Positions 30,276-32,000 of a stretch of DNA of 32,000 nucleotides are shown one piece after another; positions within the stretch are counted from its first letter, which is position 1, and each line of letters starts with the position of its first letter. Origin of the DNA: Candidatus Helarchaeota ASGARD archaeon Hel_GB_B (GTDB lineage Archaea > Asgardarchaeota > Lokiarchaeia > Helarchaeales > HEL-GB-B); contig SUPR01000033.1 in NCBI GenBank assembly GCA_005191425.1, forward strand, positions 1 through 32,000, written 5' to 3'. Both the position numbers and the translations under genes were made by a program. The notes below the pieces were generated by a model. It was given only the letters and a program-made list of their open reading frames with translations, was not told the DNA's origin and did not search any database.

Positions 30276-30398
30276 ATTAATAATTATAATTTTTTATCAA
30301 AAATAATTTTTTCCATAATTTACAATTGTTTAAATATTTTGTTAGTACAATATTTGCAAATTATTATTGAAAAAATAAAATTTTTTTTGGAATATAAA

Positions 30399-30677
30399 AT
30401 GAGTAATTTAGACAATAATAATAAACAAATAAAAAGTAAAGAAGAGATTTTTTATCAAGATACACCAAAAGAACTAATAGAATACTATAAAAAAATAAAT
30501 AAAAAAAGAATTTGTGTGTTTTGCTACAAACATGAAGTACCTAATAATGCAATGGCAGATATTTGTAAGGAATGTTGGGAGAAATTTATTAGATCAAGTT
30601 ATAATGAAATATTAAAAAAAGATCCTAATGAAAATCAAGATAATAAAAGAAGAGAAAAAAAAGAGTTTTTTCTATGA
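30399..30677 (+). CDS. Small Lys/Asn-rich zinc-ribbon hypothetical protein
   Basis: CVFC-x16-CKEC four-Cys pattern. ATG 30399 is preferred over the tracked TTG 30339. Confidence 0.4.
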   Translation: MSNLDNNNKQIKSKEEIFYQDTPKELIEYYKKINKKRICVFCYKHEVPNNAMADICKECWEKFIRSSYNEILKKDPNENQDNKRREKKEFFL

Positions 30678-30989
30678 GGACACTACTATAAATAGATGTA
30701 AAGAATGTAAGTCAGAAAATTAATTAGGATCGTTTCAAACCAAAATTCAATAAATTCAGACCTTTTAGCCAAAAAATTAAGTTGAAACTTAGAAACATAA
30801 AAGATAATTAATATGATAATTTAGAAGATAACGTTATATTTTTTCATTTACGATTTTTATAGTTTCAAGCCAAATGTCATTATAAAATAAATTTAATAAA
30901 AAATATTGACCATCTTCTTTATATACGCTAATAAATAAATAAATTTTAAAATGACGAATCCTATAATTTTAGTAGAATGATAGGTACTT

Positions 30990-31225
30990 TCCTTCATAGA
31001 GGGCACCTTGATTAAAAGATGATAGCGTGTGCAAATGAGGGAATACACTTGACAGATACCACACTAATGTTCCGTATTGGATAGCGCCCTTACATGAGAT
31101 GGATGTGTCATCCGACGATGAATGAGGTTTAATTGTCTCACATTAAACCTGAAAATTAAGTCAACCCCTTTATGGTACAGTGTGGTATATGGGTATTGGT
31201 AATATGCCATCCACGAGAGGAACTT
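30990..31225 (+). ncRNA. Candidate structured non-coding RNA, class unassigned
   Basis: Stops occur in all three plus frames, and the only minus-strand ORF (31064-31282) is not protein-like. By hand count G+C is about 43% in 31001-31060 versus about 18% in 30841-30900. A long-range helix joins 31053-31065 with 31179-31191 (12 of 13 pairs). A crossing helix joins 30994-31003 with 31166-31175. Hairpins lie at 31101-31113, 31125-31150 and 31192-31208. G-U pairs favour the plus strand. Confidence 0.3.
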
Positions 31226-31297
31226 TAGCGATTTTGGATATTTCCGTAAATGAGCTATTGAGTTAGTGTTTGATGGCAACAACCAATTACCCTCTTT

Positions 31298-32000
31298 TCA
31301 GTATACATTAATGTCGAGACAGACATGAAAAGTATGTGGTTTATAGGACTTGATTTTTTCTAAATGTGCCAATTCGATTGTGCGATTATTTTTAACAGCA
31401 ACATTTTCAACATCAGATAATAATGTTTCAGGAGAGTTATTATCGAGTAAAATACCTTCATAATGAATAACACATGGGCCTTTTTTTAATACTTTAAAAG
31501 CAGTATCTAAGCTGGATTTAGGACTAGGTAAAATTCCCATAATGATTCTATCGGCGTGTTCGGGAATTTCTAGTGCTTTAATTCTGCAGTCGCCAAAAAT
31601 GGGTATTACTTTGTCCTTAGGAATTTTATTTAGTTTTAAATTTTCGATTAAATATTTATAAGAAGTTGGGTTTATCTCAAAAGCGTATATTCTCGATGCT
31701 TTTGAAAATTTCGCGATACCTAAAGTAAAGTACCCAATGCCAGCATAGAAATCAAAAATTATTTCTCTATTTTTTATCAATGGAATGTATCTACGTCTTT
31801 CATTTATATTTCCTTTAGCAAACATAATTTTCAATACATCGAACTTGTATTTAATGCCATTTTCAATTACAATAGTTTCTGTATCGCTACCTGCTAGCAA
31901 TTCCAATTGAGGTTCCCGGAATTCGCCATAAATAGCTCCTTTTTTTAAACATACAGTACTGCAATTTTTAACAATTTTTAAAATTGCTTCTGCAATGATT
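31298..32000 (-). CDS. Trm5/Tyw2-family SAM-dependent tRNA methyltransferase, 5' part beyond the window
   Basis: FDFYAGIGYFTLGIAKF, AFEINPTSYKYLIENLKLNK, GDCR and DRIIMGILP. The frame stays open upstream of the tracked TTG 31906 to the window edge (...IIAEAILKIVKNCSTVCLKKGAIYGEFREPQLELLAG). Confidence 0.75.
   Translation of the reverse strand, partial: IIAEAILKIVKNCSTVCLKKGAIYGEFREPQLELLAGSDTETIVIENGIKYKFDVLKIMFAKGNINERRRYIPLIKNREIIFDFYAGIGYFTLGIAKFSKASRIYAFEINPTSYKYLIENLKLNKIPKDKVIPIFGDCRIKALEIPEHADRIIMGILPSPKSSLDTAFKVLKKGPCVIHYEGILLDNNSPETLLSDVENVAVKNNRTIELAHLEKIKSYKPHTFHVCLDINVY

Follow-up and report, generated by a model that had tools for sequence, protein, structure and literature searches.

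A conserved RNA gene of Asgard archaea that very probably encodes a divergent three-motif box H/ACA guide RNA

Near the end of a 32,000-nucleotide (nt) stretch of DNA from the Helarchaeales genome Hel_GB_B (positions 1 to 32,000 of contig SUPR01000033.1; the whole stretch is here called the window), an A+T-rich spacer is interrupted by an island of higher G+C content. What kind of gene, if any, does this island hold? The original prediction had seen in positions 30990-31225 a candidate novel structured RNA of open class, with a pseudoknot and several short motifs reminiscent of RNase P RNA. Judged from sequence, the island is a conserved RNA gene with a supported fold, so that the prediction of a structured, non-coding gene on the plus strand holds, while its class is neither open nor new. 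It very probably encodes a three-motif box H/ACA guide small RNA (sRNA) about 320 nt long, a divergent and enlarged Asgard homologue of HgcG/Pab40/Pf7/Afu4 (Rfam family RF00064). Box H/ACA guides of the HgcG/Pab40 kind tell Cbf5 which ribosomal uridines become pseudouridine (Psi).

The island as a conserved RNA gene

The assembly, G000, comprises 3.5 Mb, and the window belongs to its contig C111. Over window positions ~30950-31300 the G+C content is 0.36-0.43, compared to 0.12-0.23 in the upstream spacer, a rise that the original prediction had noted. The whole plus strand of the element folds at -95.5 kcal/mol, against -76.8 ± 4.9 kcal/mol in shuffled sequences (z = -3.8). The island was also described as free of open reading frames (ORFs), and no conserved one was found: the minus-strand ORFs that overlap the element in the window and in its same-genus homologue, G001, have no Pfam match and only a stretch of 20 amino acids (aa) in common. 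By BLAST, the two loci are 75% identical across window positions 30974-31286, and both flanks have diverged. This divergence outside the conserved block implies a unit of ~315-325 nt (~30972-31296), larger than the 236 nt initially delimited. The element is single-copy in G000, where neither a second copy nor a repeat of it was found.

BLAST and a 25-nt pattern search of the class retrieved only the same-genus homologue, making it necessary to use a covariance model. The model, R1, was built from the window and G001 and matches the window at 30965-31296. Of 151 Lokiarchaeia genomes, 39 contain one full-length match each and no more, with E-values down to 1e-24, while some families of the class gave no match, such as f5 (0 of 13); in a phylum-wide sample, 18 of 151 genomes were matched, among them the window's genome, nine Lokiarchaeia genomes and small genomes of other Asgard classes. 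The fold of this family is supported by covariation. With RNAalifold, 11 of 75 pairs were compensatory between the window and G001 alone. In an alignment of 30 members fitted to the model, 58 of the 75 modelled pairs carry changes on both sides (16-23 when the partners are slid by 1-3 columns), 92.7% of the cells pair (35-46% in the slid controls) and the covariation score is 0.383 (at most 0.066 in the slid controls). A MAFFT alignment of 28 members, which is independent of the model, likewise allowed RNAalifold to recover the main stems; of the 35 pairs in this fold, 20 are compensatory. Several conserved pairs are of the G-U type and would turn into A-C on the opposite strand; like the kink-turn (K-turn) and ANA motifs described below, they fit the plus strand only. 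The RNA would be transcribed independently from it.

Three domains of the box H/ACA type and the predicted target of motif 1

The family is characterised by three hairpin domains. In each, an internal loop of invariant sequence separates a stem from an upper stem, and the apex bears the signature of a K-turn or kink-loop (K-loop), with tandem G-A and A-G pairs beside a loop or a 3-nt bulge. Immediately 3' of each lower stem stands a trinucleotide that is ACA, AUA or AAA throughout the family, and nothing else. The published rules for archaeal H/ACA motifs (Muller et al. 2008, PMC2377435) call for at least 7 base pairs (bp) in the lower stem, loops of 5-11 nt, 5-6 bp in the upper stem and a K-turn or K-loop, with an ANA box placed 14-15 nt away from the target position. 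In domain architecture and A-N-A boxes, the three domains correspond to the definition of archaeal box H/ACA motifs. Of the matching protein machinery, the same genome encodes Nop10 (61.9 bits), Gar1 (32.6 bits) and a TruB_N domain of the Cbf5 type (86.1 bits, in a 333-aa frame). In such a particle, the K-turn and K-loop caps are predicted to serve as L7Ae binding sites, and the ANA boxes would be bound by the PUA domain of Cbf5.

Motif 1 agrees with the published rules in its 7-bp lower stem, in its loops of 6-7 nt, in its K-loop and in its ANA box at 14 nt, a spacing kept in most of the 42 members compared. Its loops CGAGG (5') and GCA (3') are invariant in 28 Lokiarchaeales members, and across the 42 members the 5' guide forms 5-8 contiguous pairs with the target described next and the 3' guide reads GCAA in 38, while the stems vary. 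Neither 16S nor 23S ribosomal RNA (rRNA) was found in the G000 assembly, which is 93.7% complete, so that rRNA targets were read from two relatives with assembled rRNA, G005 (same order) and G032 (same class). In their 23S rRNA, the motif 1 pocket is complementary to UUGC-UU-CCUCGAUG, with 4+8 bp around an unpaired UU, and its target score of 31 compares to 19.7 ± 2.4 for shuffled guides, none of 200 shuffles scoring as high. The sequence CCUCGAUGUCGG, the universally conserved segment of the peptidyl-transferase region, is placed here at E. coli C2498-G2509, which makes the target uridine position 2496. On this sequence evidence, motif 1 is predicted to target the uridine that corresponds to position 2496 of E. 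coli, to Psi2588 of P. abyssi and to Psi2865 of yeast 25S rRNA, which Cbf5, Nop10, Gar1 and L7Ae would together isomerise to pseudouridine.

The correspondence with the modified positions is borne out by their context. In P. abyssi, Psi2588 is guided by motif 1 of Pab40 and is conserved in eukaryotes along with 2549 and 2603. The homologous yeast uridine, Psi2865, is guided by snR46 and is followed five bases downstream, in the same sequence motif, by m5C2870 (PMC5699541). The spacings agree as well: 2603 and 2588 in P. abyssi are 15 positions apart, as are 2880 and 2865 in yeast, and 2588 and 2549 are 39 apart, as are 2865 and 2826.

The kinship with HgcG/Pab40 is reached through the relatives. 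RF00064, whose gathering score is 77 bits, does not match the window even at E <= 10. It does match members of the R1 family over their full length and with the same order of motifs, at 14.3-43.2 bits and thus always below gathering: L066 (43.2 bits, E 2.8e-9), L065 (43.0 bits, E 3.1e-9), L050 (30.1 bits, E 9.3e-6), L069 (29.2 bits, E 5.5e-5), L071 (21 bits, E 0.018), L068 (18.4 bits, E 0.11) and L051 (14.3 bits, E 0.65). Since the relatives are matched and the window is not, the homology to HgcG is transitive, leading from the window to the R1 family and from there to RF00064; it is supported by the common motif order and by the common target of motif 1.

Motifs 2 and 3 and the alternative readings

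For motif 3, the relatives again provide the lead. Infernal places this domain of theirs on motif 3 of RF00064, and motif 3 of Pab40 acts in vitro on helix 69 (P. abyssi 2016). In Asgard genomes with an assembled 23S rRNA, helix 69 reads GAGUAACUAUAACUCUCUU; on the 3' strand of motif 3 the invariant GUUA can pair with UAAC, and on the 5' strand the likewise invariant GAGAG with CUCUC, leaving U1915-A-U1917-A-A unpaired. Among about 750 uridines this site ranks second or third for motif 3, with a score within the shuffled-guide null. By homology to Pab40 motif 3, helix 69 is the likeliest target of motif 3, an assignment that we consider to stand at roughly even odds. For motif 2, the GGGUUU site (E. 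coli 2584-2586) was considered and set aside as a target; the match is one-sided and top-ranked in G032 only, and just a four-base ACCC core of the complementarity is widely common. Among characterised HgcG/Pab40 relatives, the target of motif 2 differs. The remaining matches of motifs 2 and 3 were genome-specific, one-sided or within the shuffled-guide null, and one fell in a variable region. These scans covered the 23S rRNA of G005 and G032 and pieces of 16S rRNA; 16S positions ~828-1190 and the tRNAs lay outside the scan.

The 16S genes themselves are of some interest. In both G005:C12:50-897 (L048) and G032:C2:450044-450885 (L047) the match breaks off at position 828 of the model, to resume with the 3' part at ~1190 on another contig (L058, L059). 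That two assemblies break at the same place points to an insertion (an intron or expansion) or a repeat within this part of the Lokiarchaeia 16S gene. In a relative described as a single contig, G100, only the 3' tip of 16S was seen (G100:C1:1040662-1040677, L060), after a run of 100 N and with protein-coding sequence next to it. This has the appearance of an artefact of scaffolding, and the genome would then not be truly closed.

Several observations weigh against a three-motif guide RNA of the HgcG/Pab40 family. The window itself is not matched by RF00064, and no family member reaches its 77 bits. The 5' guide of the window's motif 1 has one A-G mismatch to the target (7 of 8 pairs), and that target was taken from the two relatives, as the rRNA of G000 is unassembled. 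With several definitions of the pocket, neither motif 2 nor motif 3 has a statistically significant target in the rRNA scanned, and the pairing of motif 3 with helix 69 amounts to just 4+5 bp, not above the shuffled-guide null. The geometry, too, departs from the rules. Judged by sequence signatures, the stem between pocket and K-turn is ~6-7 bp in motif 1, but comprises ~8-11 layers in motifs 2 and 3, compared to the 5-6 bp of the Pyrococcus rule; counting bulged bases, the ANA distance in these two motifs comes to 16-18 nt, and their lower stems are short or interrupted.

From such features, one could argue that motif 1 alone is a guide, and that motifs 2 and 3 are non-guide parts of the same ribonucleoprotein (RNP), acting as a chaperone of rRNA folding or processing like the eukaryotic snR30/U17 or snR10, or as a scaffold that keeps three Cbf5 units together. 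Besides the missing targets and a geometry outside the functional range found for Pyrococcus, this proposal can draw on the invariance of the loops CACGAGAG/GUUAGUG (in motif 3) and AAUGGGCUC, and on extra helices and a C/D-type K-turn that lie outside the RF00064 consensus. However, a guide directed at a universally conserved target would also show invariant loops, the rules derive from hyperthermophiles and need not hold for Asgard archaea, the scan excluded part of 16S and the tRNAs, and Infernal aligns motif 3 of the relatives to an experimentally active helix 69 guide. We therefore regard the proposal as rather unlikely. A wider version of it, which we find similarly doubtful, holds that Asgard archaea rebuilt the ancestral three-motif sRNA into a larger, clamped particle in which the C/D K-turn and the closing helices lock the ANA boxes; its non-guide motifs 2 and 3 could act in the folding or processing of rRNA, in the manner of snR30/U17 or snR10, or in recruiting proteins, like the mixed C/D-H/ACA small Cajal body RNAs.

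The two remaining readings question the class of the RNA, or even that it is one. A new RNA of the RNase P or MRP type, or an otherwise catalytic pseudoknotted RNA, might be suggested by the ~320 nt, the multi-helix architecture and the one long-range helix that proved real. This helix, placed at 31053-31065/31179-31191 by the original prediction, is present there, and its core, 31056-31064/31180-31188, is maintained through compensatory changes in G001 and in the family. Its supposed pseudoknot partner, 30994-31003/31166-31175, was not selected by RNAalifold and, by inspection of the alignment, is not kept in G001; covarying pairings at 30989-30995/31037-31043 and 31072-31076/31171-31175 take its place, leaving the P2/P4-like topology to rest on a helix without conservation support. 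The short motifs likewise find other explanations: GAGGGAAUAC (31037-31046), compared to CR-I, forms the 3' side of the lower stem in motif 1 and extends to the ACA box; ACAG (31177-31180), compared to J2/4, contains the ANA box of motif 2; and GAUGAAUGA (31117-31125), compared to J18/2 of E. coli, is the bulged strand and G-A step of the motif 2 K-turn. Moreover, Rfam matched nothing in the window at gathering or at E <= 10, RNase P and MRP included, nor anything in the loci of 12 relatives at gathering. A search for RNase P RNA elsewhere, as the original prediction had advised, located the canonical gene at G000:C182:47690-48069 (164 bits), vindicating the doubt already voiced about an RNase P assignment, and the signal recognition particle (SRP) RNA lies on another contig (C170:4364-4685, 99.5 bits), which disposes of both identities for the island. 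With these two RNAs elsewhere, the pseudoknot helix unsupported and the RNase P-like motifs turned into H/ACA features, a new RNA of this type is, as far as sequence can tell, hardly conceivable. That the island is a decayed coding fragment, or a 3' untranslated element (3'-UTR) of the convergent TRM5/TYW2 gene, has next to no likelihood either. A 72-aa minus-strand ORF does overlap it and it adjoins the methyltransferase stop codon, but the scant common sequence of the two ORFs, their lack of a Pfam match and the compensatory nature of the substitutions within stems exclude a coding remnant, the motifs are legible on the plus strand only, and neighbours that differ between lineages exclude a UTR element. 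A box H/ACA guide sRNA thus remains the preferred reading.

Other identities were considered and dropped. ARAGORN found no tRNA or intron-bearing tRNA, and U3-like, MRP-like and telomerase-like RNAs were set aside for want of any defining motif. As to the two canonical RNAs, the RNase P match (L001) spans 380 nt for a model of 288 positions, implying sizeable insertions, and the SRP match barely passes its threshold (99.5 compared to 96.5 bits).

Features and surroundings of the gene

The coordinates are collected in Table 1. Both hairpins of the original prediction proved exact: the one at 31101-31113 is the tip of the C-stem of the motif 2 K-turn, and the one at 31125-31150 is an insertion in motif 2. 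The latter, a perfect hairpin of 9-10 bp, occurs in this genus only and shows three compensatory changes in G001. Upstream, most family members carry a TATA-like element resembling TTTTTATAA or CTTTATAA at a distance from the 5' end comparable to that of the candidate TATA box here, and in most relatives oligo-U follows the 3' helix. The corresponding T-tract of the window adjoins the convergent gene of a TRM5/TYW2-type methyltransferase at its stop codon.

Table 1. Features of the probable H/ACA sRNA gene in the window (all positions refer to the window)
Feature	Position	Strand	Remarks
Candidate TATA box (TTTTAAAA)	30944..30951	+	~25-30 nt upstream of conserved block; putative promoter
Whole RNA gene, probable three-motif box H/ACA sRNA	30972..31296	+	ends approximate
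Box C-like element (AAUGAUAGG)	30976..30984	+	Kt1 partner of box D-like NUGA after motif 1; degenerate here
H/ACA motif 1	30989..31043	+	stems covary
Motif 1 lower stem, 7 bp	30989-30995 with 31037-31043	+	
Motif 1 5' guide	30996-31002	+	
Motif 1 upper stem, ~6-7 bp	~31003-31007 with ~31026-31032	+	
Motif 1 K-loop (UGA, loop, GAUGA)	31008-31023	+	
Motif 1 3' guide GCAA	31031-34	+	
ANA box 1 (ACA)	31045..31047	+	14 nt downstream of first base of 3' guide, G31031
Box D-like UUGA after ANA box 1	31049-31052	+	
H/ACA-like motif 2	31056..31188	+	compensatory changes; K-turn geometry read from sequence
Motif 2 outer helix	31056-31064 with 31180-31188	+	compensatory changes
Motif 2 inner stem	31072-31076 with 31171-31175	+	compensatory changes
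Motif 2 loops	31077-31092 and 31163-31170	+	
Motif 2 K-turn, 5' part	CAU-GA 31093-97; C-stem hairpin 31098-31116	+	
Motif 2 K-turn, 3' part	bulge GAU 31117-19; GA 31120-21; AUG 31122-24	+	
Lineage-specific extra hairpin in motif 2	31125-31150	+	compensatory changes
ANA box 2 (ACA)	31177..31179	+	between inner stem and 3' strand of outer helix; ACA/AUA/AAA in relatives
H/ACA-like motif 3	31195..31287	+	lower, upper and outer stems covary
Motif 3 outer helix	31195-31200 with 31282-31287	+	
Motif 3 lower stem	31206-31211 with 31272-31277, plus CAC 31212-14 with GUG 31266-68	+	
Motif 3 conserved loops	GAGAGG 31215-20; GUUA 31262-65	+	
Motif 3 upper stem	31221-29 with 31254-61	+	
Motif 3 K-turn	GA 31230-31 and GA 31252-53, around hairpin 31232-31251	+	
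ANA box 3 (ACA)	31279..31281	+	ACA, AAA or AUA in relatives
T-rich tract (CTCTTTTC), likely terminator	31292..31299	+	from sequence

The genomic context was uninformative, the neighbours varying by lineage (a roadblock/LAMTOR3-like gene, an ABC transporter, an acyl-CoA dehydrogenase). The usual neighbour in Lokiarchaeales is a convergent gene of ~160 aa that matches MAPKK1_Int (LAMTOR3/roadblock-type fold) at up to 29 bits, as in L017:1014-1493, L018:1822-2301, L032:1831-2310 and equivalents; its product is a eukaryote-like signature protein and probably unrelated to the RNA. In the window, positions 30339-30677 (+) hold a 112-aa ORF with two CxxC pairs in zinc-ribbon-like spacing and a very lysine-rich tail, for which no Pfam match was found.

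Relation to HgcG/Pab40 and other known systems

The gene adds an unannotated, phylum-wide RNA to the annotation of Asgard genomes. RF00064 in its present form misses the Asgard branch, and its seed could be extended by about 45 sequences. The RNA is otherwise of a known kind with a known job. HgcG, too, sits in a G+C-rich island of an A+T-rich genome. Likewise, HgcG/Pab40/Pf7/Pho40/Afu4 of Thermococcales, Methanocaldococcus and Archaeoglobus carry three H/ACA motifs per transcript, in the same order; their motif 1 has, like that of the window, a K-loop, the guide core CGAGG...GCA and the same 23S uridine as its target, and their motif 3 has the same 3' guide core GUUA. The window RNA is, however, larger, with ~320 nt compared to the ~220 nt of structured RNA in the RF00064 model, and differs in several elements: motif 2 is enlarged and has gained the extra hairpin in this genus, the upper stems are longer, and, unlike in the RF00064 consensus, helices close motif 2 (31056-64/31180-88) and motif 3 (31195-200/31282-87), so that the ANA boxes come to sit in internal loops.

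In Lokiarchaeales, two further elements set the family apart from the RF00064 consensus. A pairing, P1, joins the 5' end (UUGGGA) to the spacer that separates motifs 2 and 3, and a box C-like AUGAUGG together with NUGA surrounds motif 1 as a C/D-type K-turn (Kt1). In 26 of 35 relatives the C-stem of Kt1 reaches 4 or more contiguous pairs, with 7 different pair combinations. In the window's genome neither P1 nor the C/D K-turn is evident; box-like sequences are present, but the Kt1 C-stem was found neither in the window nor in G001. Modest as these Asgard additions are (the enlarged motif 2, the K-turn clamp and the closing helices), they could bear on how archaeal sRNAs evolved into eukaryotic small nucleolar RNAs (snoRNAs).

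A joining of H/ACA and C/D features is known from Pab21/Pf1, in which an H/ACA motif and a box C/D motif form one archaeal transcript (PMC2377435). In the Asgard family, by contrast, the C/D-type K-turn encloses an H/ACA hairpin and lacks the 12-nt guide spacers, so that no methylation guide function is indicated. An identity as box C/D sRNA was rejected on the same grounds, the intervening sequence being an H/ACA hairpin rather than spacers of ~12 nt and the window lacking the C-stem of the K-turn. Haloferax volcanii sR-h45 has two stem-loops that guide Psi1940, Psi1942 and Psi2605, one pocket serving two helix 69 uridines (PMC7075261). Like the window RNA, it is a multi-motif archaeal H/ACA RNA, and motif 3, if it does act on helix 69, would leave both helix 69 uridines unpaired between arms of 4 and 5 bp; sR-h45 differs in motif number and in its other targets.

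A further counterpart is yeast snR46, which guides the homologous peptidyl-transferase uridine (25S Psi2865), as predicted for motif 1. Unlike the window RNA, this eukaryotic H/ACA snoRNA has two hairpins and no K-turns, and the likeness is one of target only, with no homology of sequence claimed. As the predicted target is a pseudouridine common to Pyrococcus (Psi2588) and yeast (Psi2865), the pairing of guide and target is probably older than the divergence of eukaryotes from Asgard archaea.

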